Shown: positions 8,155 to 51,880 of the stretch, in pieces
Layout of the letters: each line of letters begins with the position of its first letter
Position numbering within the stretch: the first letter of the stretch is position 1
Origin: a virus
DNA: 64,000 bases
Virus record (IMG/VR): IMGVR_UViG_3300037319_000172
Span: 32,001 to 96,000 of that record
Strand: one strand, 5' to 3'
Program-made: the position numbers and the translations under genes
Notes under the pieces: model-generated
Database searches by the model: none
What the model was told of the DNA's origin: nothing
The model's input: only the letters and a program-made list of their open reading frames with translations

Positions 8155-8170
8155 ATGTTTATATATACGT

Positions 8171-33814: not shown

Positions 33815-33816
33815 GT

Positions 33817-34071
33817 TTAGTAGTATTTAACGTCGTCGTATGTTAGACCGATATCTCGAATAGATACTGGATATTTTGTAGATGCTCCTTGTGTTAATTC
33901 ATTTTCATAAGATATTATTGTAAAATATTTCTCATTATGTAATTTAGTTAAACTATCGCTTGTCGCGATAATGGAACCTTTAATAACACTTCCTGCGAAT
34001 CTAAAGAAGTATACTCCTCCTATTTTAGGAGACTTTACTGTGATTTTTCTTTGTATCTTTTTCTTTGCCAT
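33817..34071 (-). CDS. Hypothetical protein (start revised to MAKKKIQ)
   Basis: Class II promoter at 34078-34104 lies inside the longer ORF call, just upstream of ATG 34071. Confidence 0.55.
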   Translation of the reverse strand: MAKKKIQRKITVKSPKIGGVYFFRFAGSVIKGSIIATSDSLTKLHNEKYFTIISYENELTQGASTKYPVSIRDIGLTYDDVKYY

Positions 34072-34102
34072 ATACATATTATACAATGTAATTAGAAAAG
34101 GT

Positions 34103-34336
34103 TTATAAATCGTTCCATGAGGAATGTTCCCTAGCCTCACGGATCCTTGTATAAACTTCATAATTGACATTAATCTCTAAGAATCCTCCAGTAATACTTC
34201 CTGGTAAATCTTTAGGATTAATCCAATAATATGGAAGCCTATTAGTTCTTTCGTTGATAAAATCAAATAATGCATCTACCTCCATATGGTGGACGTATAT
34301 TACAATATTCATACAATTCATATTTGGGTATGCCAT
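34103..34336 (-). CDS. Hypothetical protein
   Basis: 77 aa ORF in operon. Confidence 0.55.
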   Translation of the reverse strand: MAYPNMNCMNIVIYVHHMEVDALFDFINERTNRLPYYWINPKDLPGSITGGFLEINVNYEVYTRIREAREHSSWNDL

Positions 34337-34339
34337 AGT

Positions 34340-34933
34340 TTATTTATAATGTCCTCCACCTAACCAAAGAACGAATGATTTTCTAATACCCTTAGTTACG
34401 GGTCTAACTGAATGAACTAGATAACTTGGAAATAATACGACAGTACCTTTTCCTCTTGGAGCAATAAGATTATTAGTATTTAGGCTTTCTCCTCCCATCC
34501 AGAAACAAAGGTCTCCTCCTTCGTATTCGCTTGAATCAGATAACTGAACTGTTATTGATATTTTTCTAACAGACATACTATCGTTTCCAACATCTTGATG
34601 CCAGTCATATTTCCCTAGTTCGTCAGCATTGTATTCAGTATATTGTATTAATTCAGGGGCTGAAGTTGCATCAAATTTCCACATTGTGTCATTCGCTTCG
34701 CTAGCGAATACTATTAGTTTTTCGTACAACCAATTCCACTCTGTAGTTTGTGGAATCCATTTTATATTTGATTTACGATCAGGTGTTATTCCTCCATCTG
34801 TCACTGCTCTGACGTAATCTAGATTATTAACGCCGTCTTCAATCCATCTTAATTCCTCAGATGTGAATCCTTTATCAAACCAATAATAGTCCACTGCTTT
34901 GTTTTGATTAGGTTCGAATATATTACTTCTCAT
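34340..34933 (-). CDS. 2OG-Fe(II) oxygenase (prolyl/lysyl hydroxylase-like, PKHD-type)
   Basis: WHQD...RKIS..QLS..EYEGG...FPS...HSVRPVTKGIRKS. Confidence 0.92.
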   Translation of the reverse strand: MRSNIFEPNQNKAVDYYWFDKGFTSEELRWIEDGVNNLDYVRAVTDGGITPDRKSNIKWIPQTTEWNWLYEKLIVFASEANDTMWKFDATSAPELIQYTEYNADELGKYDWHQDVGNDSMSVRKISITVQLSDSSEYEGGDLCFWMGGESLNTNNLIAPRGKGTVVLFPSYLVHSVRPVTKGIRKSFVLWLGGGHYK

Positions 34934-36809
34934 TTTCGTTATATGTTATATTAACTATTCCTTCTTCTTCACCATACCTTGATTCTGTATTTATAGGATA
35001 GCTTGGATTCTCTTCATATGCCCAGTCATGTTGTCCTAACTCTTCAAATCTTAATTTTATCTTTTCGTTATAATACATTGATATAGTTCGGGTTCTTCTT
35101 TGAATATCTGCTCTAGATAAATCATGAGTGTTCCTGTGCCCTGCATTACTATATAGAAATTGAATGTAACTTAGTTTAGGTATCTTACACATTAATGTAT
35201 GTAAAAAGGTTCTAACGATTAATTCATAATCATCAACAACTGTTAAACTTCTGTTATGTCCTCCTATTTCGAAATATGTAGTTCTTCTCCATGCTCTAAT
35301 GTGATTAGGCACTCCAACAATATGTCTTATTGTTTTAGGATTGATATTCTGTTGATTAGCAGGTGATAACATTCTACCTTGATATTCTTCATCTCTATAG
35401 TTACCGTATCCTAATGCAAATCCAGGTTCGTATTTATGATTCTCCCATTGTTCATTTACTTCTGCAGTATCTCCGTAAAAGAATCCGCATTCAGGATGTT
35501 TTTGTGCTGCCTTGTGTAAATCTTCAGCACATGTTTCCGCTAATAGATCGTCATGATCTAGTTCTGCAAGAATATATCCTTTAGCCATTACATTAGATCT
35601 CCATTTAACTTCTCCAATAACTCCACCTGATTTTTCTCTAAAGTCATACACTCTAACTCTTGGATCGTTTTTCGCAATCTCTTCAGCTATTTTTAGTGTT
35701 TTACCTCCATCAGTAGAATCATTCATTAATATCCATTCCCAGTTTCCATAAGATTGTCTAGCAACTGATTCGTATGTGTTCCATAACTTATCTCCTGTAT
35801 TATAAATAGGAGTAGTAAATGATATTAAGCTCTGATCATTTAAATTAGTAGGATCTAACATCGCGTTTTCTGAAACACTATATGCGATATCACCAACTAG
35901 GTTCATGTCTCCGTCATCATCTATGTTTATCCACTTTCTTCTAAATTGAAGAGGTAAACTGCAAAGTGTAGGAAATGAATCAGAACTTTCTCCTCTAGTA
36001 ACTATAGAGTCTGGTTTAAATTCAGAAATAACTTTACTTATATTATCATCATTTTTAACATACATTACTGTTAAATTATTATCTTCATAATCCAATACCT
36101 TTGATGTCTTTAACTGAGGTCTTCCTTCACCGACATACAACACTCTTGGTAGTTTAGGAGTTGACTCCTTTTGTAATTTATTATAGTGTGAAAGTATTTC
36201 ATCTATCCAAACGAAGCGACTCGGGTGATCCTTGTAAACTTCATCAATAAAGAATCCGTCTGCTGCATAATCTGCAGTGAATCCATATTCATCAAAAAGA
36301 TCTCCTCTTAATAATACTTGAGCGATATCTGTTTTCTGATAACCTGTATTTTGTGGAGTTGCTTCCCTATATTTTAATCCTGTAAAATCTTTACCATTGA
36401 CATCTTGTCCGACAACAATCATTACTTTATCTGAATTACTAGGAATCGTTAAATGTTCTTCTATTCTTTGATAAAAATCGGAATGCATTATATTATCATC
36501 ATCTAGTAAATAAAACCAACCAGATCCTCGAGTAACCATATCGGATTCGTGTGAAACTATATGTCTTATTAAGTCAGTAGTTTCAGGATACATCATCCCT
36601 CCTTTTTTACCTTTGATAAAATGTATTGTTGTATTTTCTTGATCTAATTCTGCAAGTACCTCTGCGTCAATATCCTTAAGCGATCCTGTATCAAACATGA
36701 TGTGCCAATGGATATCTACATTTGCTGTTTTAGAATTATCAAAAACTGTAGGTTTGATTTTTAAAAGATTAGACGTACGGGTACACCTTGTTATTACATT
36801 AATTTTCAT
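34923..36809 (-). CDS. Two-domain GT-A (GT2-like) glycosyltransferase
   Basis: N-terminal domain with YLLDDDN and ADG.F; C-terminal domain with TPIYN, NDSTD, ELDHDD, DDYEL. Confidence 0.88.
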   Translation of the reverse strand: MKINVITRCTRTSNLLKIKPTVFDNSKTANVDIHWHIMFDTGSLKDIDAEVLAELDQENTTIHFIKGKKGGMMYPETTDLIRHIVSHESDMVTRGSGWFYLLDDDNIMHSDFYQRIEEHLTIPSNSDKVMIVVGQDVNGKDFTGLKYREATPQNTGYQKTDIAQVLLRGDLFDEYGFTADYAADGFFIDEVYKDHPSRFVWIDEILSHYNKLQKESTPKLPRVLYVGEGRPQLKTSKVLDYEDNNLTVMYVKNDDNISKVISEFKPDSIVTRGESSDSFPTLCSLPLQFRRKWINIDDDGDMNLVGDIAYSVSENAMLDPTNLNDQSLISFTTPIYNTGDKLWNTYESVARQSYGNWEWILMNDSTDGGKTLKIAEEIAKNDPRVRVYDFREKSGGVIGEVKWRSNVMAKGYILAELDHDDLLAETCAEDLHKAAQKHPECGFFYGDTAEVNEQWENHKYEPGFALGYGNYRDEEYQGRMLSPANQQNINPKTIRHIVGVPNHIRAWRRTTYFEIGGHNRSLTVVDDYELIVRTFLHTLMCKIPKLSYIQFLYSNAGHRNTHDLSRADIQRRTRTISMYYNEKIKLRFEELGQHDWAYEENPSYPINTESRYGEEEGIVNITYNENEK

Positions 36810-36819
36810 TTAGTATGGT

Positions 36820-37758
36820 TTATTGTTGTATGTCAAAAAAGAACATGTGAAAAAATCGTGAGTTATCTATTGCGTCTCCGAAGTATTCGGTTGCTGCGTG
36901 TATCTGTGATGAGTTGAAAATTACGAGTCTATTATATACGTTACCAATATCATCTATCTTTTCAAATAGAGTTCCATCGTAAAAGTTCATAGCTTCGTTT
37001 GTTCCTTTAAATGTGTGAAAGTATTCATCTCCCATTCTAGATTCCTGTCCTGGAAAAGAATTTATACCTGTTACTTTACTTCGGTACATTGATGTTCCAG
37101 TAGGTGCAGGTGCGTTTGGTGTTAAGTATACCATTGCGGCATACATTTGAGAATCTACATGATAAACAATAGGCTGATCAGCAGTACAATATTGAAATAC
37201 ACCATTAGCGTATCCTACATTGTTCCAGTTTGTTATCTTTCTACCTAATATTTCTTCTAACTTTTCTTTAGTTCCATCTAGTATAAATCTAGAATTTGAT
37301 CTCTGTCCTTTATGATAATCCGATGGAGTGTATTCAAGGTTTTGCATCGCATATTCTCTAACAAGATCTGGATCTGCATAGAAATTATCTACAACAATGA
37401 CATCTTTATCTGTTGGGTTAAACCCTGATGAAACAGCTGCCCATTTTCCTATAGAAACAAACTCTTCAGGTTCTTCACCATTAAAACTTATTCTTAATTT
37501 AGAATTTATTAAATGTTTGGGAATAGATATGTTGAATCCAGTGCAAAAGTCTAAAGATCCTTCATAGTATCTAGATACATCTATCCTAGGTTCCCATTCT
37601 ATTTTTAATTTAATATCTTCTATTAATAAATCTATAAAGTTAATTTTTCTATCGCTGTTTGTAGAACCTATCCAACCTCTTACATTCCATGTTGAATCTA
37701 ATCCTTCAGATACTTCATCAACATTAAGTAATATATTTTTAATATTAGTAGTATGCAT
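36820..37758 (-). CDS. 2OG-Fe(II) oxygenase-like protein (DUF6445-like C-terminal domain)
   Basis: VVDNFYADPDLVR, HVD, YLTP, YNRLVIF...HAA, R-F-F-H; extra N-terminal beta domain. Confidence 0.75.
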   Translation of the reverse strand: MHTTNIKNILLNVDEVSEGLDSTWNVRGWIGSTNSDRKINFIDLLIEDIKLKIEWEPRIDVSRYYEGSLDFCTGFNISIPKHLINSKLRISFNGEEPEEFVSIGKWAAVSSGFNPTDKDVIVVDNFYADPDLVREYAMQNLEYTPSDYHKGQRSNSRFILDGTKEKLEEILGRKITNWNNVGYANGVFQYCTADQPIVYHVDSQMYAAMVYLTPNAPAPTGTSMYRSKVTGINSFPGQESRMGDEYFHTFKGTNEAMNFYDGTLFEKIDDIGNVYNRLVIFNSSQIHAATEYFGDAIDNSRFFHMFFFDIQQ

Positions 37759-37774
37759 TCTTATTTCTTTAATT

Positions 37775-37801
37775 ATTATACGATTAATTTGCTATTTGTT
37801 T
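37775..37801 (-). promoter_or_regulatory. Class II promoter for the oxygenase/glycosyltransferase/oxygenase operon
   Basis: rc AAAC AAATAGCAAATTAATCG TATAAT. Confidence 0.75.
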
Positions 37802-37810
37802 ATATATTAC

Positions 37811-37842
37811 AAAAAAAAGGATCCCATTTCTGAGATCCTTTT
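37811..37842 (-). terminator. Intrinsic terminator after the collagen cluster
   Basis: rc AAAAGGATCTCAGAAATGGGATCCTTTTTTTT. Confidence 0.85.
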
Positions 37843-37868
37843 AACTATTTATATTTACTATTTATTAT

Positions 37869-40832
37869 TTAGAAACGTCCTCTACCTCCACCTCCACCTG
37901 GTCCTGAGCTTATTTCTTCTTTTCTGTTGTGTGTTACTATTCCGTTTGCTATATAAACGTCATCGTTTTCAACATCCAATCTCCATACTCTCTGATGTAC
38001 TCCTTCAAATAAAGGACTCATTGTAATCGTATCGACTACGATTTTACTAAATGAATCTTTAAGTAATAAGAAATCTCCCTGTAGTAGTTCAGATGTTTTT
38101 AAAGTTCGCCATTCACCATTTCTCTCTGCAATATGTAAATGGTCTGCTGAAGCTTCTATTATTCCATTAATATTGTATGAATACATTACTAGTATTTCAA
38201 CGTTAGAAGTTACTGTTGATTCTGAAAATGTAGCGTTTAATTCGCTTGATCTCCATTCTTTTAAAACAGCATATTCATCTGAATCAGGCATGGTGTCTAT
38301 ATGTACTGATTTTACGATATTTCCTACTTCTACATTTTCTATACTTTTAAAAGAACCATCATTCATTTCAATTTGTGTTCCTTCTATTAAACAGCCGGGT
38401 CCGCCTCCTGTATTTATTATAGAAGTTACTAATCCATTAGATAATCCGATAAAAATATTACTAGTACTAAAACTCCTATCTGAATCTGAACCTCCAGACA
38501 AAGTACGTCCTCTATATCCTTGAGGTCCTCTTGAATTATAATTCCCATTATTTCCTCTGTAACCTTGAGCTCCTCTTGGTCCACCATTTCCTTGAGCTCC
38601 TCTTGGACCTTTATATCCACCGGGTCCATTATTACCTTTTGTACCTTGAGCTCCTTGAGCTCCTCTAGCAGCAACTCCGTAATTTGTACCTTGTGATCCT
38701 TTTGGTCCTTTAGGTCCTTGATTTCCTGTTAATCCCTTTACGGTAGATGTTGTTCCTTGAGATCCTTGAGGACCTTGAGGACCCGTTGAACCTGTATTTC
38801 CTTGAAATCCTCTTGGCATAGCACCTTGAGCTCCTTGAGCTCCTTGATATCCTTTATATCCTTTATATCCTCTATCATAAAAACCACTAAAACCTTGAGG
38901 TCCAGTAAGTCCTTTATTACCTTGAGCTCCTCTTTGCTTAGCTCCAATAGCTCCTGTAGGTCCTGCTTCTCCTTTCACTCCTGTAGGTCCTCGGTTAGTA
39001 GCTCCTTCGAATCCATCAGCTCCTCCATCTCCTACAGTTCCTTTATCTCCTCTTGGATTATTACCTTGAGATCCTTTATATCCTCCATCTCCTTTAAGAC
39101 CTTGAGATCCTCTTGGAAAAGCACCTTGATATCCAGTAGGACCTGCGTCTCCTAGAGCTCCTTGAGGCCCTACTGGTGAATCTCCAGTATTACCTTGAGA
39201 TCCTTGAGTTCCTTGAGTTCCTCTAAGTCCTTGTGGATCATCTCCTATATGTCCTTGAGCTCCTTTAGTTCCTTGATTTCCTTTAGTTCCTTGCGGTTCG
39301 TATCCTGGATTTCCCTTAGATGCTTGAGTTCCTTGAACTCCTCTATCTCCTCTTGGATTGTATCCTTGATATCCACCAGGACCTCCGTTTCCTTGAGCTC
39401 CTTGATCTCCTCTAGGTGTTGCTCCTTGTGCTCCTTTATATCCTTGATCTCCTTGAAAACCTTCATATCCTTTAGGACTTGCTCCTTTTGATCCTTTTAA
39501 TCCTTGATCTCCTTTAGGACCTGCTGGTGATACGGGTGTACTACCTTGATTTCCTTGAGCTCCTTTATTTCCTTGATGACCTCTATGTCCTGTTGGATTT
39601 GCTCCTTTAAATCCTCTATCTCCCTGGTTTCCTTGAAAACCTTCATATCCTGTAGGACTTGCTCCACCAGTTCCTTGATTTCCTTGAGTTCCTTTATCTC
39701 CTTCATATCCTGTAGGTTCTGCTCCTGGTAAACCATTTTGTCCTGTAGCTCCTTTATCTCCTTTGAATCCTGTTAAACGATCTCCTTGTGATCCTTTATT
39801 TCCTTTATCTCCTTTGAATCCTTTATAACCTTTAATACTATCTCCTTGATTTCCTTGATTTCCTATAAAACCAGTATCACCTGATATTGCTGGATTTGTT
39901 GATCCTTGAGAACCTTTAGGTCCATCAGGTCCATCCTCTCCTTTAATTCCTTTAGGGCTTGCTCCAGTAGTTCCTTTAAATCCTAATTCACCACTTTCAC
40001 CTTTAAGTCCTATTGGTGAAGCTCCTTTATTTCCAGTATCTCCTTGTGCACCGTCTGGTCCAGAATCTGGAGACAATGTAATACCTTGATCTCCTCTAAA
40101 ACCCTGAGCTCCTTGATTTCCTTGATTTCCTTTTATATTATCACCAATAGCACCTTGATTTCCTTGAGCTCCTCTATCTCCTTCAGGTCCTGTTGGACTA
40201 TCTCCATCAGCTCCTTTATCTCCATTAGGGCCATCATCTCCTTTAGCTGCAGTATCTGTAGCTCCTTGAGGTCCTCTTGGTCCCTCAGTTCCTTTATCTC
40301 CTTTATAACTAGTAATTAGATTACCGTCTAATCCCTTATGGCCTTGATCTCCAATAGATCCTATAGCTGCTTCTTCTGTTTTACCTTTAGAACCTTGAGC
40401 TCCCTTAGATCCCTTAGATCCTTGTTCACCCTGTGGACTAAATCCATCATCTCCTTGGAATCCAGTAGGACCTTGAGGCTCATCACCATCAATTCCTAAA
40501 AGACCTTGACTACCTTGAAAACCAACTTCCCCTTCAAAGCCTTCATCTCCTATTGGATTATCTCCCTGTATTCCACGCTCTCCTTCAATACCTGTAGGTT
40601 CTTCACCTTCTAATCCTTGATCTCCTTTTAACCCTTGATTTCCTTGATTTCCTTGATCTCCTTTTAACCCTTGATTTCCTTGATCTCCTTGGAATCCTTG
40701 ATCTCCAGTTAATCCTTGATCTCCTTGAAATCCTTGATCTCCTATAAATTCTGAGTAAGCATTTTTATCGAAATTACCGACATGTAGAGGAGTTTCTCCC
40801 CCTACTGTCGATCCTGTTCTTAACTTTGCCAT
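37869..40832 (-). CDS. Collagen-like fibre protein with C-terminal Hint (BIL-type) domain
   Basis: About 750 aa of interrupted Gly-X-Y; CLIEGT...SADH...YIANGIVTHN Hint at 37926-38393. Confidence 0.9.
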   Translation of the reverse strand: MAKLRTGSTVGGETPLHVGNFDKNAYSEFIGDQGFQGDQGLTGDQGFQGDQGNQGLKGDQGNQGNQGLKGDQGLEGEEPTGIEGERGIQGDNPIGDEGFEGEVGFQGSQGLLGIDGDEPQGPTGFQGDDGFSPQGEQGSKGSKGAQGSKGKTEEAAIGSIGDQGHKGLDGNLITSYKGDKGTEGPRGPQGATDTAAKGDDGPNGDKGADGDSPTGPEGDRGAQGNQGAIGDNIKGNQGNQGAQGFRGDQGITLSPDSGPDGAQGDTGNKGASPIGLKGESGELGFKGTTGASPKGIKGEDGPDGPKGSQGSTNPAISGDTGFIGNQGNQGDSIKGYKGFKGDKGNKGSQGDRLTGFKGDKGATGQNGLPGAEPTGYEGDKGTQGNQGTGGASPTGYEGFQGNQGDRGFKGANPTGHRGHQGNKGAQGNQGSTPVSPAGPKGDQGLKGSKGASPKGYEGFQGDQGYKGAQGATPRGDQGAQGNGGPGGYQGYNPRGDRGVQGTQASKGNPGYEPQGTKGNQGTKGAQGHIGDDPQGLRGTQGTQGSQGNTGDSPVGPQGALGDAGPTGYQGAFPRGSQGLKGDGGYKGSQGNNPRGDKGTVGDGGADGFEGATNRGPTGVKGEAGPTGAIGAKQRGAQGNKGLTGPQGFSGFYDRGYKGYKGYQGAQGAQGAMPRGFQGNTGSTGPQGPQGSQGTTSTVKGLTGNQGPKGPKGSQGTNYGVAARGAQGAQGTKGNNGPGGYKGPRGAQGNGGPRGAQGYRGNNGNYNSRGPQGYRGRTLSGGSDSDRSFSTSNIFIGLSNGLVTSIINTGGGPGCLIEGTQIEMNDGSFKSIENVEVGNIVKSVHIDTMPDSDEYAVLKEWRSSELNATFSESTVTSNVEILVMYSYNINGIIEASADHLHIAERNGEWRTLKTSELLQGDFLLLKDSFSKIVVDTITMSPLFEGVHQRVWRLDVENDDVYIANGIVTHNRKEEISSGPGGGGGRGRF

Positions 40833-40875
40833 TTGTATTATTTGTTTATTTTTATATTATTATATTTAAAGTAGC

Positions 40876-43398
40876 TTAACTATGATTCTTAGTAGTAATA
40901 AATCCATTGACTACCTGTAAAACGTTATTAGAGTTATCTCTGAATTGACCGTTAAATCCAGTACCAGCACTAGTACTTCCATTAGGTCCTTTATATCCTT
41001 GAGGTCCTACTCCGTATCCTGAACCAGAAGATCCCTGTGGTCCAGTCGATGCTCCTCCTTTATATCCTTGATCTCCTTTTGGACCAGTAGATGCTACATT
41101 TCCATAGACTCCTTGAGGTCCTTTATATCCTTTTGGCCCTTTTGATCCTGAATTACCTTTAGCACCCTTATCACCTTGAGGTCCATTAGTACCTTGATTA
41201 CCTTTAGGTCCGCTTGTTCCTTGATGTCCCTGATAACCTTGCGTTCCTTGGGCTCCTTGGGCTCCGTAATAACCAGCGCTTCCTTGAGATCCTGTTCTAC
41301 CAATTCGTCCTTTATTACCTTGATCTCCTTGAACACCAGGACCGCCTGAAGATGCTTGTGTTCCCTTTGCACCTGTGTTCCCTTTTAATCCCCTGTGTCC
41401 TTTATCAATTCCTCCTTGATTAACTCCTTTAACTCCTTGATCTCCTTGAGCTCCTTGATATCCTGTTGGAGAAGTATTACCATCTGCACCAACTCCACCT
41501 TGAGCTCCTCGATCTCCTTGAACACCTCGTAGTCCATTAGAACCCTTAGCCCCTTCATCTCCTTTATTTCCTTTGAATCCTTGATATCCTTGAGGTCCTG
41601 TTAGACCTTTAGCTCCTTTAGAACCTTGAGTTCCTTGGAATCCTTTGGGCCCCTTTGATCCGGTACCTCCTTTAAGTCCTTTATCTCCTTTAAATCCTTG
41701 ATATCCTCTATCTCCGACTTCTCCTTTTACTCCGTCAGGTCCTTTAACTCCTGTAAGTCCTTTAAAACCTTGAGATCCTTGATTTCCTTGTGAACCAGGC
41801 TCTCCTTTAAGTCCTATAGGACCATCATACCCTTGATATCCTTGAGGTCCATCATCACCTGTATCTCCTTTACTTCCTTGAGTTCCTCGAAATCCTTCAT
41901 GTCCTTTACTTCCTTTAACATTCGATTCACCGGTAAACCCTTTAAATCCTAGATCTCCTTCATTTCCAATGACTCCTTGTACTCCCTCATCTCCTTTAAA
42001 TCCTTTATCTCCTTTAGATCCTTGATTACCCTGAGATCCTGTAGCTCCAATACGTCCTTTATCTCCGTCTAGTCCTTTATAACCTTGTGATCCTTCTGCA
42101 CCTTGATCTCCATCATATCCTTTTAGTCCTTTAAATCCTTGATCTCCTGTATTACCAGTAGAACCTTGATTTCCAGTTGCTCCTTTATATCCAGTGTTTC
42201 CTTGATCTCCCTTAACTCCTTTAACTCCTTGATCTCCAGCAGTTCCTTTTGATCCTTGATTTCCTTGATCTCCGTCTAGTCCTGTATTTCCTTTAGATCC
42301 TTGGTCTCCTTTATCTCCTTTTAAACCAGTATCTCCTTTATCTCCAGTTGCTCCCGTACTAGCGTTGAATCCTTTAAGACCTTGAGACCCTTTTGATCCT
42401 TTTGATCCTTGATTTCCATCAGATCCTTTAAATCCTAAATCACCGTTATCTCCTTGATCTCCAATATTACCTTGATTTCCTTTAGAACCTGTAGTACCTT
42501 GATTTCCTTGATTTCCTTTATTTCCTTGAGATCCTTGATTACCTTTATCTCCGATAACCCCTTGAAAACCTTTTAAACCATTAGAACCTTGAGGTCCTTG
42601 TGATCCATCAGTTCCTTGATATCCTGTATCACCTTTAAATCCTTTAAATCCAGATTCACCTGCTGCAGAAGGAGATGCTGTATCTCCAATATTACCTTTG
42701 AATCCTTGATCTCCCTTTGATCCTTGATTTCCTTGAATACCGATAACACCCTGAGATCCTTTATTACCTTGATCACCTTGAGTACCTTGAGTACCTGCAG
42801 ATCCTGTATATCCTTGAGTACCTTGATCTCCTTGATCTCCTTTTAATCCTTGATCTCCAGTTGCTTGTTTGTTTCCTTGAAAACCTCGAAGACCTTGATC
42901 TCCTTTAGTTCCTTGAGGTCCTTCATTACCTTGAAAACCTCGATCTCCTTGATCTCCAGTTCCTCCGCTAGATCCTGTATCTCCAGTATTTCCTTTAACT
43001 CCTTGATCTCCTTTAATACCAACTTCTCCTTGATTTCCGGTTTGGCCCTGAGTTCCTTGATCTCCAACTTCTCCTTGATCTCCTTTAATACCAACTTCTC
43101 CTTGGTTTCCTTTATCTCCAATATTACCTTGATTTCCAAAAAGACCTTGATCTCCTTGATTACCATTAGTTCCTTGTTGTCCTTGTACTCCTTTATCTCC
43201 GTCAAATCCTTGATCTCCTTTAGTTCCTTGATCACCATTATCTCCGATATCACCTAAAGCCCCTTGAGAACCTTGGCTTCCTAAGAAACCAGGTTCTCCC
43301 TGTGGTCCAACAAATTCGGGAAAATCAGTACTATTTAGGTTCCCACTATGTAACACTGTGTTACTATCAAGTGTAGTTCCTAATATAAATTTAGCCAT
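40876..43398 (-). CDS. Collagen-like fibre protein
   Basis: About 780 aa Gly-X-Y; N-terminus paralogous to the 37869 gene. Confidence 0.9.
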   Translation of the reverse strand: MAKFILGTTLDSNTVLHSGNLNSTDFPEFVGPQGEPGFLGSQGSQGALGDIGDNGDQGTKGDQGFDGDKGVQGQQGTNGNQGDQGLFGNQGNIGDKGNQGEVGIKGDQGEVGDQGTQGQTGNQGEVGIKGDQGVKGNTGDTGSSGGTGDQGDRGFQGNEGPQGTKGDQGLRGFQGNKQATGDQGLKGDQGDQGTQGYTGSAGTQGTQGDQGNKGSQGVIGIQGNQGSKGDQGFKGNIGDTASPSAAGESGFKGFKGDTGYQGTDGSQGPQGSNGLKGFQGVIGDKGNQGSQGNKGNQGNQGTTGSKGNQGNIGDQGDNGDLGFKGSDGNQGSKGSKGSQGLKGFNASTGATGDKGDTGLKGDKGDQGSKGNTGLDGDQGNQGSKGTAGDQGVKGVKGDQGNTGYKGATGNQGSTGNTGDQGFKGLKGYDGDQGAEGSQGYKGLDGDKGRIGATGSQGNQGSKGDKGFKGDEGVQGVIGNEGDLGFKGFTGESNVKGSKGHEGFRGTQGSKGDTGDDGPQGYQGYDGPIGLKGEPGSQGNQGSQGFKGLTGVKGPDGVKGEVGDRGYQGFKGDKGLKGGTGSKGPKGFQGTQGSKGAKGLTGPQGYQGFKGNKGDEGAKGSNGLRGVQGDRGAQGGVGADGNTSPTGYQGAQGDQGVKGVNQGGIDKGHRGLKGNTGAKGTQASSGGPGVQGDQGNKGRIGRTGSQGSAGYYGAQGAQGTQGYQGHQGTSGPKGNQGTNGPQGDKGAKGNSGSKGPKGYKGPQGVYGNVASTGPKGDQGYKGGASTGPQGSSGSGYGVGPQGYKGPNGSTSAGTGFNGQFRDNSNNVLQVVNGFITTKNHS

Positions 43399-43450
43399 AA
43401 TTGTTTATTTTATTTTTATATGTTATGTTATATATTTTAAATATATGTGT

Positions 43451-46204
43451 CTATTTAAACATTCCTCCAGATATTCTATCAGATGAAGAACTGTCTGAAT
43501 TAACCGAACCTTGATATCCTCCTGTTCCATGATTTCCTTGATAACCTCTAGGTCCTCCAGTTCCATTACTTCCTTGAGCTCCTTTTAATCCTTGAGCTCC
43601 TTGCGTTCCATTAGGTCCTTTATATCCTACAGCACCTTGAGGTCCTCTTCCTCTATGAGCACCTGTCGTACCTTTATCACCGTTATCTCCCTGTGATCCG
43701 GCAGTACCAGCGGTTCCTGTAAATCCTTTTACTAAAGCTCCGACATGTCCTTTAGATCCTTGAGGTCCTGTAGCTCCTTTTAATCCTTTTCTCCCGGTAT
43801 ATCCTGTTAAAGTACTATTAGTTCCTTTAACTCCTTGGTTACCTTGAGTTCCTTGATTTCCAGTTGCTCCTTGAAATCCACGTTGTCCTTGAACTCCTTT
43901 TGTATTTATGTCTCCTTGAGGTCCTCTATCACCTTGATATCCTTGATCTCCTTTATGTATACTCAAAGGATTTGGACCTGTATTTCCAGTTTGGCCCTGC
44001 ATTCCTCTAAATCCTTGAGCTCCTTGAGATCCGTTAGGTGAAACAGTTCCCTGAGATCCTCTAAATCCTATATCTCCTTTGTATCCTTTATCTCCTTTAC
44101 CTCCAACAGTTCCTTGATCTCCTTGATCTCCTCTTTGTCCTTTTAATCCATCAGGACCAGAAGCTCCTACAGTACCTTGGTGTCCTCTATATCCGTCAAA
44201 ACCTTTATCTCCACCTCCACCTGTTGCACCTGTTGCGCCTTTATCTCCTGTTGGTCCTTTATAACCATTAGTTCCTTTATCTCCGACAGGGCCTGCAGTA
44301 CCTTGAGATCCTTGAGATCCGACAAAACCTATAAATCCTTTATCTCCTCTAGCTCCTTGATCTCCAGTTGGTCCTTGAATAGTGCCAATAATTCCTTTGA
44401 ATCCTTGATCTCCTTTAGTTCCAGTATTACCTTGGAATCCTCTGTATCCCGCATCTCCTTTAGTTCCTATGTCTCCTTGAGTACCTACAGTACCTTGAGA
44501 TCCTTGAGATCCTCTAGATCCTTTAGAACCTTGATCTCCTCGATCTCCTGAAGTACCTTGATCTCCTTGAGTTCCTTGTAGTCCTTTAAATCCTGTTGGT
44601 CCAGCAATACCGGTAGTTCCGGTAGTTCCAATATTTCCTGTTAATCCTTTGTCTCCTTGAAATCCTCTATCACCTACAGTTCCTTGATCTCCTTGAGTTC
44701 CTTTTCTATTAGTTAATGTAGTTGCATTTACTCCTTGATTACCTCTGGGTCCAGTATCTCCATTAGGTCCTACAAGACCTTTATCTCCTTTATCTCCTTG
44801 AAATCCTCTTGCTCCAGTATTTCCTTGAGATCCTCTATATCCTGATCCTGTTGATGATGTTGATTGATTAATTCCTTGATTACCTTGAACTCCAGTTGCT
44901 CCTTTGTCTCCAGTTGCTCCTTTATTTCCTTTGTCTCCTTGAACTCCTCTAACACTATCATTACCATCAGATCCCTTATCTCCTTTATCTCCTTGAGATC
45001 CTTTATCACCCTGAACTCCCAATGATCCTTGAGTTCCTTGAGTTCCAATAAGACCATCAGATCCTTTATCACCCTGAGCTCCTGTTACACCGATAAATCC
45101 GTCATCACCTTTAGTTCCTTTAAATCCTTGATCTCCAATAGATCCATTAACTCCTTGAGAACCAATTTCTCCTTTATCTCCTTGAAATCCATTGTCTCCT
45201 TTAAGACCTTCTAATCCTTGATCTCCTTTAGTTCCTTGTTGTCCAATGTTTCCTGTTGTTCCAATAGTATCATCTTGTCCTTTAGTACCTGTCGATCCTT
45301 TGTCTCCAACGAATCCTTGATCTCCAATAGAACCAGTTACTCCTTCTTCACCTTGATCTCCTTTACGTCCTCTAAATCCTTCAAATCCTTGATTACCTTT
45401 AGTACCGACTCTACCTTGAAAACCAGGTTCACCATCAATACCTTGAGGTCCTCTATCACTATCTAGTCCTTTATGTCCTTGATCTCCTCTATCACCTTGA
45501 TCTCCTTGATCTCCTATAGTACCATCAAATCCTTTACTACCAACTCCTCCACCGGATCCAGAACCTCCTTGTGCTCCTGTATCTCCAATAGCACCTTGAT
45601 CTCCTTGATTTCCTTGGTCTCCTATTGGACCTGCAATACCTTCAGCGCCATTCTCTCCTTTAACACCTTGATCTCCTTTAATTCCTTGATCTCCTTTTTC
45701 TCCGATATTTCCAGTTTCACCTTGATGTCCTCTAGTTCCTTGATCTCCAATAGGACCTATAGATCCTTGAAAACCAGGATCTCCTTTTAATCCTATAAAT
45801 CCAGGTTCACCTTGATCTCCGTCATGTCCTACAACTCCTTCATTTCCTTTATCTCCTTCAAAACCTTTATCACCAGTAGGTCCTTGAACTCCTTTATCTC
45901 CTTTTAAAGAAGGAAAGTTATTAGGTTCAAAGTTATTTGGTGTTAGTATTTGGTTATTATTAATTGTCGAATCCGACTTTAATATACCAATACCGTCAAA
46001 CGTACTGTTAGATATAATAGCGTTGTCGCTTTTTCTAAAAGATAATACGTCTCCAGAAGGAAACGTATTTAGCTCTTGAAAATAAGATGGTGTATGAACA
46101 ATATTAGTACCTTTATCGATACCAGATCTTCCAGACGTTTCGTCTAGATTAGCTTGGAATTCACCAGTAGTTTGTACCAGTTTTATCGCTATGTTATTTG
46201 CCAT
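43451..46204 (-). CDS. Collagen-like fibre protein
   Basis: About 800 aa Gly-X-Y after a 100-aa N-domain. Confidence 0.9.
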   Translation of the reverse strand: MANNIAIKLVQTTGEFQANLDETSGRSGIDKGTNIVHTPSYFQELNTFPSGDVLSFRKSDNAIISNSTFDGIGILKSDSTINNNQILTPNNFEPNNFPSLKGDKGVQGPTGDKGFEGDKGNEGVVGHDGDQGEPGFIGLKGDPGFQGSIGPIGDQGTRGHQGETGNIGEKGDQGIKGDQGVKGENGAEGIAGPIGDQGNQGDQGAIGDTGAQGGSGSGGGVGSKGFDGTIGDQGDQGDRGDQGHKGLDSDRGPQGIDGEPGFQGRVGTKGNQGFEGFRGRKGDQGEEGVTGSIGDQGFVGDKGSTGTKGQDDTIGTTGNIGQQGTKGDQGLEGLKGDNGFQGDKGEIGSQGVNGSIGDQGFKGTKGDDGFIGVTGAQGDKGSDGLIGTQGTQGSLGVQGDKGSQGDKGDKGSDGNDSVRGVQGDKGNKGATGDKGATGVQGNQGINQSTSSTGSGYRGSQGNTGARGFQGDKGDKGLVGPNGDTGPRGNQGVNATTLTNRKGTQGDQGTVGDRGFQGDKGLTGNIGTTGTTGIAGPTGFKGLQGTQGDQGTSGDRGDQGSKGSRGSQGSQGTVGTQGDIGTKGDAGYRGFQGNTGTKGDQGFKGIIGTIQGPTGDQGARGDKGFIGFVGSQGSQGTAGPVGDKGTNGYKGPTGDKGATGATGGGGDKGFDGYRGHQGTVGASGPDGLKGQRGDQGDQGTVGGKGDKGYKGDIGFRGSQGTVSPNGSQGAQGFRGMQGQTGNTGPNPLSIHKGDQGYQGDRGPQGDINTKGVQGQRGFQGATGNQGTQGNQGVKGTNSTLTGYTGRKGLKGATGPQGSKGHVGALVKGFTGTAGTAGSQGDNGDKGTTGAHRGRGPQGAVGYKGPNGTQGAQGLKGAQGSNGTGGPRGYQGNHGTGGYQGSVNSDSSSSDRISGGMFK

Positions 46205-46238
46205 ATCTTTATTTAGTTATTTTTATTATTTATCAGTT

Positions 46239-46781
46239 TTATATAAACGTAAAGTTTACATCTCCATTAGAGCTTCTATCTATTTTGAAATCGACAACAC
46301 CATTAGTATCTTCGAATTCAATAGATTTACCATCTGCTATTGTTACTGACTCTCCATCAAATTCTCCTGTATCTCCTTTAGTTCCTTTTTCACCTTGGAA
46401 ACCTTGATCTCCTTTAAAACCTTGATCTCCTTTAGTTCCAACTTCTCCTTGGAATCCTTGATCTCCTTGATCTCCTTGAAAACCTTGATCTCCTTTAGTT
46501 CCTTTTTCACCTTGATCTCCTTGATCTCCTTTAGTTCCTTTTTCACCTTGATCTCCTTGAAAACCTTGATCTCCTTTAATTCCTTTTTCACCTTGAAAAC
46601 CTTGAAAACCTTGATCTCCAACTTCTCCTTGGAATCCTTGGTCTCCTGTTTCACCTTTTAATCCTTGGTCTCCTTTAGTTCCTTTTTCACCTTGAAAACC
46701 TTGATCTCCAGTATTACCTTGATGTCCTGCCCCTTGGTCTCCTTGAGGACCTGCGGTAGAAATATATGCTGAATATGCCAT
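46239..46781 (-). CDS. Short collagen-like protein
   Basis: GDQGFQ/GEKGTK tandem units that are near-perfect at DNA level. Confidence 0.85.
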   Translation of the reverse strand: MAYSAYISTAGPQGDQGAGHQGNTGDQGFQGEKGTKGDQGLKGETGDQGFQGEVGDQGFQGFQGEKGIKGDQGFQGDQGEKGTKGDQGDQGEKGTKGDQGFQGDQGDQGFQGEVGTKGDQGFKGDQGFQGEKGTKGDTGEFDGESVTIADGKSIEFEDTNGVVDFKIDRSSNGDVNFTFI

Positions 46782-46809
46782 AGTTTGATTTATCTTATTT
46801 ATTTTTTAT

Positions 46810-47574
46810 TTAGTCTAATGAGTTTCTTTCGTATACTATATCAAAAACGTCTCCGCCTCCGATTTCATATCCTGCGTTATCTGAGTTCCAAAACATTGTG
46901 TCTCCTGCTGCTAAATCTGCAACTGACTTAGAAGTAGTTCCTCCGTCTGCTGAGAAATATACATCTCCTGTTTTATCTCCGTAAGTTTCTGTAATTGCTA
47001 CACCGTTAATATAAACCTGCACAGTTGAATCTGCAAAAGGAGTAAAATCTAAAGTAATACCAGTAGATGACCCATCACCATTTGATTCTAAAGGCGTTAA
47101 GTCTGCTTGTGTGTGTTCTACACCTTGAGATATTGCAACTGCACCTAAACTAGGTCTCCATGGCAATACTTGCGCTTGTTTGTTTGTAATCGCTTGTAAT
47201 ATAGGATTACTATAAGGAAATGTAGGATTAGATGCATTAACAAATTCTGTTATAGAACCTGTATTTGTATCATCAACTACGTAAAAAGTACCTGGAGTTA
47301 ATTCCCATGAACTAATTGTAATGTTACCAATCTGTACTGCTACAAATTCTGAAGAACTTGTTGCTTCTTCAACAACTAATCTACCTAACTTATCGGCAGT
47401 CTTAGAATCTGCTAGAACCCAAGTTCCGTTAAAAAAACCTATAACATTCCCAGGAACAAAACCATGAGAAGCTTGTGTATAGCTTGATTTCAAAGACCCT
47501 GAAAGCGTCTGAAGGTCTAATGAATTTAGCTTAGCCTGTAGTCCCTCTATTTGCTTAATTTTTAATTGTGACAT
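46810..47574 (-). CDS. Virion structural/fibre-associated protein
   Basis: QASHGF.PG...WVLADS motif; C-terminal domain paralogous to the 51881 gene. Confidence 0.6.
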   Translation of the reverse strand: MSQLKIKQIEGLQAKLNSLDLQTLSGSLKSSYTQASHGFVPGNVIGFFNGTWVLADSKTADKLGRLVVEEATSSSEFVAVQIGNITISSWELTPGTFYVVDDTNTGSITEFVNASNPTFPYSNPILQAITNKQAQVLPWRPSLGAVAISQGVEHTQADLTPLESNGDGSSTGITLDFTPFADSTVQVYINGVAITETYGDKTGDVYFSADGGTTSKSVADLAAGDTMFWNSDNAGYEIGGGDVFDIVYERNSLD

Positions 47575-47698
47575 ATATTTTTCTTTTTTTTATAATTTAT
47601 TTGACGAAAAAGCGTGTCTACTCTTTCAATACTGATTTTATATATCTGGTTTAGTAGTGTTCATTAGTTTAATAGGGCCATAATATTGTAATATAATA

Positions 47699-48289
47699 AT
47701 GATACATACTTTAATGAATAACAATACTAAGAAAATAGTAAGAGATTACATATACTTTACTGAAACATTAGATGATGTTAAATCAACTTCTCAAGCTGCC
47801 GAGGGTCAATTCCGTAGTGCGATGAGTAAACACAATGAACCTGCACTTGAAGCACTATCACCTCCTAAGGGTACTCCTCCTATTAGTAAAATAGAGGATG
47901 AAGAGCATGTTAAATTCGAAGATAAAAACTTTAAAAAGCTTTTTAGAAAATTAGTAGTTAAATGCCATCCAGATAAATTAGATGATTCCTATTCTGAAAC
48001 AGAAGGAATGTTCTTAAAAGAATGTTATGAAAATTTAACTAAAAGTAATCAAACATATGATTGGGGAATGCTATTAAGAGTGTCAATTGATTTAAAAGTG
48101 GATGTACCTGATTTAAGCGATGAAAACTTAAAAAACATTATCGATAACATAGAATCTATTAAGAATAACATTAGTAAATTTGAAGGATCCATGGCATATA
48201 AATGGTATACCCTTCCTGATGAAAATGAAAAGAAAGGGTATTTAGAAAATTGTGCTAAAATATTTATGTTTAGTTTAAGTAAGCGTTAA
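47699..48289 (+). CDS. J-domain protein (class C)
   Basis: FKKLFRKLVVKCHPDKL (HPD motif). Confidence 0.75.
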   Translation: MIHTLMNNNTKKIVRDYIYFTETLDDVKSTSQAAEGQFRSAMSKHNEPALEALSPPKGTPPISKIEDEEHVKFEDKNFKKLFRKLVVKCHPDKLDDSYSETEGMFLKECYENLTKSNQTYDWGMLLRVSIDLKVDVPDLSDENLKNIIDNIESIKNNISKFEGSMAYKWYTLPDENEKKGYLENCAKIFMFSLSKR

Positions 48290-49065
48290 ACATCCCATAC
48301 TCCATTCATATGACATCTAACATATGTCGGTTGAGAATATAGTGCGCCGTTCTTATATCTACCTTGTACTTCCTTTATAAAGAAAATATCTTCAGAAATA
48401 CTACTAGAAATAACGTCCTGCCATTTGTTTGATATATTACTGACATGCATGAATAACCACGGAGCCATTATCTGTCTACCTTTTGCAAATTGCATTGGTT
48501 TCCAAGTTTCTGGTAATCCTGCAAGTTCTACACTTTCAATAGTATTAGGATCTATTATACCAGTTAAATTCTTTTCTGTTCCAGTAACTCGGCTGTTATC
48601 ATACCAAGATCCATTAATCCACCATGTCTTTTCAGGTTCTGCGTTATATTCTAATAATGCTGACATAGTATGATTAGGCATTATGTAATCGTCTGAATCC
48701 ATATAAGTTATAAGAGATCCGGTTGATGCTGCTATTCCAAGTTGCCTAGCTGCTCCTCTATAGTAGGTTCCTTCTTCCATTTCTTCATACATTTTTGGAG
48801 TATTAGATCTGTCATAATATACAAATTTAATATTAGCATTTTCTTTATGAGATCTATTATATAGCTGGTGCGTCTTGTTACATCCGTCTGCTACTATAAT
48901 CAATTCACAATTTTTATAAATTTGGTTGTTAAAACTTTCAACTGCCCTATGAAATTTATTAATAGAATCTTCTCTTGCTCCTGGATATTTTTCCAGATTA
49001 ACTTGCATTATTATTGATATTTTAACTTTATCTAAAGCTTCGTATATTTCTTTAAAATCGTTCAT
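48286..49065 (-). CDS. GT2-family glycosyltransferase
   Basis: ISIIM...ELIIVADGC...R..G......ITYMDSDD...SED..F. Confidence 0.88.
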   Translation of the reverse strand: MNDFKEIYEALDKVKISIIMQVNLEKYPGAREDSINKFHRAVESFNNQIYKNCELIIVADGCNKTHQLYNRSHKENANIKFVYYDRSNTPKMYEEMEEGTYYRGAARQLGIAASTGSLITYMDSDDYIMPNHTMSALLEYNAEPEKTWWINGSWYDNSRVTGTEKNLTGIIDPNTIESVELAGLPETWKPMQFAKGRQIMAPWLFMHVSNISNKWQDVISSSISEDIFFIKEVQGRYKNGALYSQPTYVRCHMNGVWDV

Positions 49066-50261
49066 TATTTATATAAGTTTGTTTTCCAATTATATTCGTA
49101 TGACAACTCATGTTTATTTGGATTAAATAAGTTGTCTATAAGTTTTTTATATGTATCAACCAATTCAGGGTTAGTTGACGTATATCTATTTAGTATTGGT
49201 TTGTTTTTTTCAATGTATTCTTCAATGTTTTTATCATGATCCTGCAATGCAATTTTAAGTTGCTCAGCGCCTTTTGTTATATTAAATCCTTCATAATAAT
49301 ATCCTCCATCCTTAATCATGTCTGCATTATGAACAAGTGGGTACCCGTAGTACATTGCGTCTAAATATGCATAGTTTAATGGGTTTTCCCATTGGTGTGA
49401 AATGACAATATCGGTTTCACTTGAAAGGAACGTTGAAATAGGATATCTACCTACAAATTTTATTTTATTATCGCTTGAATTAACTATATCGAAATGCTTA
49501 ATCATATCAAGATAGTATTTATTTGTAATAAGCTTTTTACCTGAACCTATAAATATTTGCTTGAATGAAGCTTCACCTAAATCTCTAAATATCTTTTCAG
49601 CAATCATGATTGGTATTAATGAATATTTTACAACATTCAAATTAGGTTCCATTACTGATAGCTTCTTTTTATGCTGAGCCTTTGGTGTATACTTAGGAGT
49701 TTTCTTTCCGGCTTTTGTTAGTAATTTATCAAAATCATCTAAAGGTTCTGGATCCCAAACAAAAGGAACGATATGTACTTGTGAATCGTTCTGTCTATAT
49801 ATAGTCTTATAATATTCTAAGTTCTGATATTCTTGTTGAGGTATAATCCAAGTTGCGTCATGTCCGCTATCCCATGAAGGCTTCTCTCCTTCACTTGCTT
49901 TATCAAATAATACTCTTTCCATATCTACAACATAACTATTGCCGCATTGATATTTTACTATTTTTATATTTGGATTAGATTCTTTAATCTTTTTTATTCT
50001 ACTAGTAGGCAATGAAGATCCTATCATGAATAACAAATCTAATTTGTTTTCCATGTCTATAAATTTAGCTATTTTATATTTACTATAATCCCAATTTACT
50101 TTGGTTAAATCATCAACTGCAGTCCCAGTGTCTAATATGTAAACATCTAGCCCTTCGATCTGGCCTAGCATTTTTGATAAATTCAAAGCATTTAGTTTAA
50201 TACCATTGATCCACATGCTTTCGTATTCGGTATTTAGCGATATTGATATTCCTACTTTCAT
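49065..50261 (-). CDS. DUF2827-like putative glycosyltransferase (GT-B-like)
   Basis: MKVGIS...W.NGI..N, EPNLNVVK, SHQWENPLNY.YLDA...YPLVHN. Confidence 0.8.
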   Translation of the reverse strand: MKVGISISLNTEYESMWINGIKLNALNLSKMLGQIEGLDVYILDTGTAVDDLTKVNWDYSKYKIAKFIDMENKLDLLFMIGSSLPTSRIKKIKESNPNIKIVKYQCGNSYVVDMERVLFDKASEGEKPSWDSGHDATWIIPQQEYQNLEYYKTIYRQNDSQVHIVPFVWDPEPLDDFDKLLTKAGKKTPKYTPKAQHKKKLSVMEPNLNVVKYSLIPIMIAEKIFRDLGEASFKQIFIGSGKKLITNKYYLDMIKHFDIVNSSDNKIKFVGRYPISTFLSSETDIVISHQWENPLNYAYLDAMYYGYPLVHNADMIKDGGYYYEGFNITKGAEQLKIALQDHDKNIEEYIEKNKPILNRYTSTNPELVDTYKKLIDNLFNPNKHELSYEYNWKTNLYK

Positions 50262-50290
50262 AAACAGTTATTGTATTTATTTATATATTT

Positions 50291-50318
50291 AAAAAAGAAA
50301 GGGTCCCGAAGGACCCTT
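50291..50318 (-). terminator. Intrinsic terminator with cUUCGg tetraloop
   Basis: rc AAGGGTCCTTCGGGACCCTTTCTTTTTT. Confidence 0.9.
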
Positions 50319-51717: not shown

Positions 51718-51880
51718 ATTGTTTATTGTGTTATATTTTGGCCTAACAACCTTATTGTCGTTAGTGATTTATATATCTCACATAAGCGGGTGGACGTGTA
51801 TATAATACACGTAATATGTTAATAGAATTCAAAAAAATGAAAAAATGAGAAAACCCAATTAATATAGACCGATTAAGCTC

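Follow-up and report, generated by a model that had tools for sequence, protein, structure and literature searches.

In animals and in Mimivirus, it is established that enzymes modify collagen. The Mimivirus enzyme L230 is a bifunctional lysyl hydroxylase and glucosyltransferase with collagen-like partners, e.g., L71 and R240 (PMC9614988). Collagen-like proteins of prokaryotes and phages are generally described as unmodified, and the main exception is BclA, a prokaryotic collagen-like fibre that is O-glycosylated within a Gly-X-Y region rich in Thr at the Y position (PMC8968730). A further system of relevance involves DUF2827 genes, which are reported to lie constantly beside trimeric autotransporter adhesins in Burkholderia, Veillonellales and Pasteurellales, and whose products have been proposed to be cytoplasmic glycosyltransferases (bioRxiv 10.64898/2026.01.22.700529, 2026 preprint). 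Here we analyse a stretch of 64,000 nucleotides of viral DNA (hereafter, the window), bases 32001-96000 of the IMG/VR record IMGVR_UViG_3300037319_000172, in which four tandem collagen-like genes are flanked by genes for 2-oxoglutarate (2OG)-Fe(II) oxygenases and putative glycosyltransferases. We believe that this locus is best explained as a fibre module whose collagens are decorated by the flanking enzymes, and we would put the probability of this explanation at roughly 0.6.

The locus resembles the Mimivirus L230 system, as well as LH3/PLOD and COLGALT1 of animals, in that a virus has collagen-like proteins together with a paired 2OG oxygenase and glycosyltransferase; a hydroxylate-then-glycosylate logic is possible, and the collagens are low in Pro and Lys-rich at Y (PMC9614988). 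It differs from L230 in that the enzymes of the window are separate genes of other families (DUF6445, PKHD-like PF13640, GT2 and DUF2827), and in that the host is bacterial and any modification would be cytoplasmic.

The collagen block and its flanking enzymes

The collagen block consists of four intact open reading frames (ORFs) on the minus strand: colA (37869..40832, 987 aa), colB (40876..43398, 840 aa, 245 triplets), colC (43451..46204, 917 aa, 251 triplets) and colD (46239..46781, 180 aa, 41 triplets without interruption). Runs of Gly-X-Y, the longest of 49 triplets, make up 64-88% of each ORF and total 746 triplets, and the Pfam Collagen family (PF01391) was recovered with E-values of 1e-55 for colA and 6e-23 for colD. 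A first-pass annotation, made from the sequence alone, had described a Gly-X-Y block at 37869-46781 with Gln, Lys and Arg dominating the Y position and with Pro mostly at X, and our counts bear this out, including the triplets it quoted. The Y position is occupied by Gln 249 times (33%), by Lys 169 times (23%), by Thr 77 times (10%) and by Arg 36 times (5%), while Pro is found at 54 X positions and 7 Y positions; the individual triplets amount to 35 GDK, 19 GSK, 18 GFK, 16 GTK, 14 GYK, 17 GPQ and 8 GPK. Over the block, G+C climbs from about 0.31 to 0.40-0.42. The collagen genes also match PHROG entries for "tail fiber", and these matches are driven by the repeats.

A strictly periodic break with a conserved Pro is a feature of colA that colB and colC do not have. 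Residues 195-675 of colA (window 38808-40250) form 24 consecutive units of exactly 20 residues, each made of Gly-X-Y triplets and a break of two residues, and most of them close with x-Pro-[K/R/T/Q/V], e.g., SPK, TPR, NPR or EPQ. The C-terminus of colA (37869-38410) holds a non-collagen domain that begins with Cys (CLIEGT) and ends in THN, followed by Arg and a Gly-rich tail; in a Pfam search at E <= 0.01, no Hint or intein family was found for it and Collagen was the sole family reported. Two comparisons concern the variability of these genes. An 8.8-kb DNA contig from another marine sample is about 93% identical over the enzyme genes (33800-37841) and diverges exactly at the terminator after colA, and in a related locus (L010) the DUF6445 gene product is 95% identical to that of the window and the colA tail 53%. 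Variability appears to be much higher in the collagen genes than in the adjoining enzymes.

Downstream of the collagens, the first-pass annotation had placed an oxygenase, a two-domain glycosyltransferase and a second oxygenase, and all three assignments held up. The first of these, oxy197 (34340..34933, minus strand), belongs to PF13640 (2OG-FeII_Oxy_3, P4H/PKHD-like; Pfam E 4e-13), the family of the catalytic domain of prolyl 4-hydroxylases (P4Hs), and is the sole match to PF13640 in the whole 109.6-kb contig. H112, H174 and R184 are invariant among 13 homologues, and D114 is nearly so. Its nearest solved relatives in a profile search are the PiuC/YbiX "PKHD-type" hydroxylases (E 1e-10), followed at a distance by a P4H (E 0.03) and P3H1 (E 0.78); a full-text literature search returned no description of the PiuC/YbiX substrate. 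A search for long fused forms of oxy197 found two proteins, neither with a collagen or glycosyltransferase domain.

The second oxygenase (36820..37758, minus strand; Pfam DUF6445, E 6e-12) combines an N-terminal beta-rich domain with a domain (residues 112-312) that is modelled as the double-stranded beta-helix fold of oxygenases. No relative was found by sequence among solved structures, and a full-text literature search yielded no paper on DUF6445. The model matches OGFOD1 (Z 13.1 over 164 residues), P. putida P4H (12.4), PHD enzymes including PHD2 (about 12) and vCPH of the virus PBCV-1 (11.2). Furthermore, H200, D202, H287 and R301, in the arrangement HxD...H...R, are invariant in phage and bacterial members (sets of 18 and 13 sequences). 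The features that define the 2OG-Fe(II) superfamily, i.e., the fold, the HxD...H triad and a basic 2OG residue, were thus found in both proteins, in oxy197 by family and motif and in DUF6445 by model and motif, and the model identifies DUF6445 as a second oxygenase as far as the fold is concerned.

Between the two oxygenases lies GT628 (34923..36809, minus strand), a protein of 628 aa with two GT-A domains, an N-terminal one with a DDD motif and a C-terminal GT2 domain (residues 331-468) with DHDD (Pfam GT2, E 1.7e-17). The second, N-terminal GT-A domain is visible in the structural model (pLDDT 88), DDD is kept in all 23 homologues that have this domain, and DHDD in 26 of 26. The sole solved chain to align over both domains is the K4 chondroitin polymerase K4CP of E. 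coli (Z 24, residues 1-610, 440 aligned), with a high rmsd that reflects domain orientation. As modelled, GT628 has the architecture of K4CP, P. multocida heparosan synthase 2 (PmHS2) and LARGE1, namely two GT-A domains with a conserved acidic metal-binding DXD-type motif in each. It differs from K4CP-type polymerases in that identity is only about 14-16% and some relatives are without the N-terminal domain, and any polymerisation by GT628 would be conjectural. A homologue of its C-terminal two-thirds (36% identity) is also encoded by a 735-kb uncultured phage (LR756501.1, locus L001:14809-16263). There it comes directly after a run of large ORFs, which have a Gly-rich tail and long coiled repeats and which, read by sequence alone, resemble genes for head assembly; no collagen gene lies close by.

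The upstream flank, for which the first-pass annotation had listed a GT2, a DUF2827-like protein and a J-domain gene, was likewise confirmed. GT2_259 (48286..49065, minus strand) is a family 2 glycosyltransferase (E 1.5e-9) that is conserved between the DUF2827 and collagen genes in related loci; the only two PF00535 matches in the 109.6-kb contig are the two GT2 genes that flank the collagens. The DUF2827 protein (PF10933; 49065..50261, minus strand), a putative glycosyltransferase, matches its family over the entire profile (1-362 of 362; E 5e-93, 312 bits), and neither its single sequence nor a profile found a relative among solved structures. Like the bacterial DUF2827 genes described above, and within one and the same Pfam family, it is encoded beside long trimeric fibrous surface proteins. 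However, its partner is a phage collagen-like triple helix and not a coiled-coil or beta-roll adhesin, and the glycosyltransferase role is putative in both settings. J196 (47699..48289), the sole plus-strand gene of the locus, matches DnaJ at E 6e-5 with 23.4 bits, under the Pfam cut-off of 27.8, and its assignment is supported by this weak profile together with the HPD motif, kept in 18 of 18 distinct homologues (26-71% identity), all of whose loci have collagen genes or DUF2827.

Linkage to collagen genes in phages and bacteria

In close relatives of the phage (GT628 62-93% identical), the entire order from phoH to the collagen genes is kept, which alone says little. A profile scan for DUF6445 returned 75 viral loci, and the gene right after DUF6445 is GT628-like in nearly all related phage loci. 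The position of the collagens relative to this pair varies: they lie upstream, as in the window (collagen-DUF6445-GT), downstream of the pair (L038, L039 and L041), downstream with oxy197 in between (DUF6445-GT-oxy197-collagen; L031 and L032) or on both sides (L042). Loci with a short form of DUF6445 add further layouts, with four collagen genes beginning 22 bp downstream (L082 and L083) or the order collagen-DUF6445-GT2 (L073).

The other enzymes behave similarly. A collagen ORF lies within 8 kb of oxy197 homologues in 57 of 79 loci, about 20 of which are without DUF6445 and GT628, and two of these 20 adjoin other glycan enzymes. One encodes an FkbM methyltransferase protein and a TPR-WavE protein, beside a tail sheath gene. 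The other (IMG/VR contig 3300017754_004657, 1-13830; our locus L230, distinct from the Mimivirus protein) encodes a GT4+GT25 fusion, an oxy197 homologue, an FkbM methyltransferase and a GT4+GT9 fusion. Of 62 DUF2827 loci, which reach down to 31% identity, nearly all have collagen genes no more than 8 kb away, and the J-domain gene often adjoins directly; J196 is also linked to collagen genes down to about 30% identity. These arrangements support the view that a variable glycosylation toolkit would travel with genes for collagen-like fibres.

The linkage extends to cellular genomes. Using one genome per prokaryotic species, we found 12 cellular DUF6445 loci, nine from Thiothrix/Thiolinea (including the isolate T. 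eikelboomii ATCC 49788) and one each from Vampirovibrionaceae, Acidimicrobiaceae and Methylococcus metagenome-assembled genomes (MAGs). A collagen-like ORF lies within about 3 kb in all 12 and a GT2 is present in 11. On a Thiolinea MAG contig (L237:9336-14710), for example, a five-gene island comprises orf179, DUF6445, a GT2-methyltransferase, orf165 and a collagen-like protein of 524 aa, which has GSQ/GST/GTN/GAQ repeats and ends in a Cys/Trp-rich tail. As the island is flanked by dnaE and lpxB/lpxD, it is chromosomal and not part of a prophage. The same triad of collagen, DUF6445 and GT2 occurs in T. eikelboomii ATCC 49788, and many such contigs end within the collagen gene. Thiothrix/Thiolinea genomes contain no more than 3-5 collagen-like ORFs in 4 Mb, so that for any one lineage a position within 4 kb of such an ORF would arise by chance about 1% of the time.

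These data also bear on a simpler account, by which the adjacency is an inherited gene order of one phage clade, or a variable accessory island, and the oxygenases are generic marine-phage 2OG enzymes. Oxygenases of the PF13640 type are indeed common accessory genes of marine phages (phrog_61), synteny from phoH to the collagens is conserved across close relatives, and a paired test of oxy197 against Pro content, discussed below, had too few contrasts to reach significance. Nevertheless, collagens are also the neighbours in loci that otherwise have no gene in common with the window, and in bacteria of different phyla, where proximity by chance is expected in about 1% of lineages, and we regard this account as highly improbable. 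The first-pass annotation had proposed a collagen maturation locus and suggested synteny across related phages as a check. Order is kept in close relatives, linkage persists in differing layouts, and DUF6445 with GT2 keeps beside collagens in bacteria as well; in this general form the proposal stands. A collagen maturation module that extends to bacteria is, as a reading of genome sequences, well supported.

Acceptor residues and possible chemistry

The specific chemistry in the first-pass annotation fared less well. It had suggested that one or both oxygenases are lysyl hydroxylases acting at X-Lys-Gly, and that the transferases then glycosylate hydroxylysine, as do animal LH3/COLGALT and Mimivirus L230. 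Several features of the window fit this idea: 23% of Y positions are Lys and only 7 are Pro, an oxygenase adjoins a transferase like the two domains of Mimivirus L230 (PMC9614988), and the L230 hydroxylase domain (6ax6) is among the structural matches of DUF6445 (Z 9.6). Yet this match ranks 37th, more than 30 other oxygenases, prolyl hydroxylases among them, fit the fold better, and phmmer and profile searches with both oxygenases found no sequence match to PLOD or L230 among solved structures. No GT25- or LH3-type transferase was found in the locus either, where Pfam shows only GT2 and DUF2827 and the listed structural matches are of GT2 type. A comparison of X and Y composition over 84 distinct loci showed that Y-Lys is frequent (14-29%) solely in the window's own subclade. 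While the window has 169 Y-Lys, orthologues of both oxygenases and GT628 accompany many collagens in which Y-Lys is just 0-5% (L021, L031, L037-L042, L044 and L188-L217), and the bacterial partners are built of GAQ, GST and GTN repeats that lack Pro and have hardly any Lys. Mean Y-Lys is also alike with and without oxy197 (8.2% vs 10.1%) and with and without DUF6445 (9.0% vs 9.3%). The hydroxylysine mechanism is thus probably wrong as an explanation for the family, and very unlikely overall; for this one phage, glycosylated hydroxylysine is possible, with nothing that points to it specifically. Given that GT25 is the family of the animal collagen galactosyltransferase, an animal-like pathway would be likelier in the phage locus on contig 3300017754_004657 than in the window. 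Three collagen genes precede the enzymes there, with 42% X-Pro, 15% Y-Pro and 16% Y-Lys.

Prolyl 4-hydroxylases such as C-P4H, PBCV-1 vCPH and the B. anthracis P4H share with oxy197 the PF13640 family, the structural matches of DUF6445 at Z 11-12 include P. putida P4H, PHD2 and vCPH, and collagens near oxy197 tend to be Pro-rich: mean X-Pro is 28% beside oxy197 and 9% without it. Moreover, among the loci compared, every collagen set with at least 32% X-Pro comes from a locus with oxy197, except L151, where the 8-kb flank leaves the presence of oxy197 undecided. A paired test on the GT628 tree offered only 4-5 independent contrasts and was not significant; the oxy197-positive side had the higher Pro content in most of them (about 2 of 4 at a 20% cut-off), and the reverse was rare. 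On the other hand, the X-Pro-Gly sequence that defines classic P4H substrates is nearly absent from the window, where 7 Y-Pro stand against 54 X-Pro, and in almost none of the linked collagens does Y-Pro exceed 4%. In addition, oxy197 is closest to PiuC/YbiX, and collagens linked to DUF6445 can be without any Pro. We consider it plausible that hydroxylation of Pro by oxy197 is an addition to O-glycosylation.

What all enzyme-linked collagens have in common is Gly and Ser/Thr, with Gln in most; some phage partners consist of GTS, GSS, GTN and GTD repeats, and the window offers 232 candidate Ser/Thr acceptors among its 1492 X and Y positions. This is the point of contact with BclA of Bacillus anthracis/cereus and BclA1 of C. 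difficile. The differences are that the enzymes belong to other families, that the fibres of the window are those of a phage, and that Gln and Lys, not Thr, dominate at Y. We know of no requirement of BclA for an oxygenase. Taken together, the gene content is most likely to reflect fibres that are O-glycosylated, and possibly hydroxylated, on the virion. The four tandem genes probably form long triple-helical fibres, of about 180-215 nm if continuous. The J-domain protein may recruit host DnaK as long as the chains in the host cytoplasm have not folded, and there the transferases would attach and extend O-linked sugars, Ser/Thr being the likeliest acceptor, as in Bacillus BclA. In such a scheme oxy197 would hydroxylate Pro, mainly at X and in the periodic breaks of colA, and DUF6445 might make a further acceptor or tailor the sugar.

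A sugar-directed role for these enzymes could also be taken further. They might act on a non-protein glycan, such as a host surface polysaccharide, a free polymer coating the particle or glycosylated DNA bases, and merely be neighbours of the fibre genes. Consistent with this, GT628 resembles the bifunctional polymerases K4CP, PmHS2 and LARGE1, weak NCBIfam matches are to enzymes of teichuronic acid, PNAG and colanic acid, and the sugar-acting oxygenases HygX and EvdO are near the top of the structural matches of DUF6445. DUF6445 domains are, in addition, often fused to glycan-tailoring and other domains (GT2, GT17, FkbM methyltransferase, pyruvyl-transferase, sulfotransferase and TPR), and a thymidylate-synthase homologue at 55391-56245 could point to modified DNA. 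But the compact island of collagen, GT2 and DUF6445 amid the housekeeping genes of Thiolinea is hard to explain without a link to collagen, the linkage outlasts several rearrangements, and DUF2827 is tied to another class of trimeric fibrous proteins in bacteria. Furthermore, no lipid-carrier, flippase or export genes were seen adjoining the enzymes, and no enzyme of the locus matches the TET/JBP family in Pfam. We thus find a purely non-protein target unlikely, and decoration of the collagen-like fibres remains our preferred explanation.

A bolder version of that explanation, which we put forward tentatively, is that DUF6445 and its partner GT2 constitute a previously unrecognised, collagen-specific modification system of Thiothrix/Thiolinea-type bacteria and many marine phages, with chemistry unlike every known collagen modification. 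Because its substrates can be without Pro and Lys, the target of DUF6445 would have to be a different residue (Gln, Asn, Thr or Ser, in the X or Y position) or an attached sugar. The phage might then add a second oxygenase, DUF2827, another GT2 and a J-domain co-chaperone to obtain heavily decorated fibres.

Several points weigh against a decorated-fibre module. The case is built from gene content, folds, catalytic motifs and conserved linkage rather than from observed chemistry, and the placement of the fibres on the virion is drawn from gene context. Oxygenase folds do not separate protein substrates from sugars or small molecules; HygX, EvdO and HalB score about as high as prolyl hydroxylases. 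GT2 enzymes and K4CP-like architectures mostly make polysaccharides and not protein glycans. About 30 loci with short-form DUF6445 have no collagen gene within 10 kb (although four of five such records have one elsewhere). oxy197 is absent from several otherwise identical loci (L012/L013 and L022-L030), and is therefore dispensable. Finally, most phage loci come from one broad clade with conserved gene order, so that many of the adjacencies are not independent.

If fibre decoration is correct, it would provide a first testable role for two families, DUF6445 and DUF2827, and T. eikelboomii would be a cultured model for such work. It would also mean that many abundant marine phages carry glycan-coated fibres, which could affect host recognition, particle stickiness and evasion of defences. 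The module may additionally interest those who engineer recombinant bacterial collagens.

Expression, upstream fibre genes and the source phage

The first-pass annotation had assigned the downstream enzymes and the collagens to different promoter classes, and expected the enzymes to be made before their substrate. Our analysis points elsewhere. The motif ATATATAAA occurs 10 times in the window, where 5.3 copies are expected, and nine copies are on the gene strand, i.e., minus (7800, 8158, 10341, 24948, 37799, 47637, 50280, 51768 and 53097). Eight of these nine lie 17-63 nt before an annotated ORF start, the ninth being the copy at 8158-8166, and the genes so preceded are DUF6445, fib254 (at the head of the collagen run), DUF2827, cc453, fib399, the baseplate-wedge gene and two others. 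ATATATAAA is a candidate late promoter element of the phage. The copy at 37799..37807 lies 41 nt upstream of the DUF6445 start and overlaps a TAAACA-16-TATAAT match (37802-37775). It is accompanied by a terminator-like hairpin and T-run between colA and DUF6445 (37815..37842, minus strand), with a stem of 12 pairs followed by TTTTTTTT. The copy at 47637..47645, 63 nt upstream of fib254, is the likely promoter of the run fib254-colD-colC-colB-colA, and the collagen genes would then be co-transcribed with the upstream fibre protein from a late-type promoter. A third arrangement, upstream of DUF2827 (50280..50318, minus strand), has a terminator-like hairpin (50318-50299) and then ATATATAAA (50288-50280). 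Enzymes and fibre genes thus appear to fall into one promoter class, to judge from the motif: copies stand upstream of both enzyme operons (DUF6445 and DUF2827) and of the fibre genes, and because the motif is shared, an order of enzymes before substrate is not supported. In the RNA libraries of two studies, contigs extend over close relatives of DUF6445 and GT628, which is weak evidence of transcription, as carry-over of DNA is possible. They did not extend over oxy197 or colA, a gap that carries no weight because the comparison was limited to assembled contigs of relatives.

Three conserved genes upstream of the collagens belong to the same fibre module. fib254 (46810..47574, minus strand) lies directly upstream of the collagen genes, as do its homologues in many loci; it has a C-terminal region in common with fib399, and tblastn links it to fib399-like genes. 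cc453, which is repeat-rich and helix-like, and fib399 (together 50356..53080, minus strand) are each preceded by ATATATAAA. In other phages of the clade (L096, L097, L102, L131, L139 and L142), homologues of fib399 (51881-53080 in the window) themselves hold 100-260 Gly-X-Y triplets, and the fib399 of the window may be the collagen-less version of a fifth fibre protein.

The IMG/VR fragment from which the window is taken is 109.6 kb long and estimated to be 35% complete. The window has a G+C of 30-33%, its minus strand carries nearly all genes, and it includes a baseplate-wedge gene (5963-7783). A conserved protein of 582 aa has counterparts, at 35-42% identity, in Tenacibaculum phages PTm1, PTm5 and pT24, in Sphingomonas phage PAU and in other Bacteroidota phages. 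On the basis of these counterparts, the source is an uncultured marine jumbo myophage of the broad PTm1/pT24/PAU group, a distant relative of the Tenacibaculum phages PTm1 and pT24. Among cultured phages, megablast with the enzyme block and tblastn with DUF2827 returned no match, no isolate carrying the module was identified, and GT628 and DUF6445 matched solely distant genes of cyanophages or huge phages. Outside the window, three more ORFs of the 109.6-kb contig, whose frames measure 758, 781 and 285 aa, include brief collagen-like segments; they are located at G000:C1:21461-23945 and 109150-109557, and the last one runs off the end of the contig.

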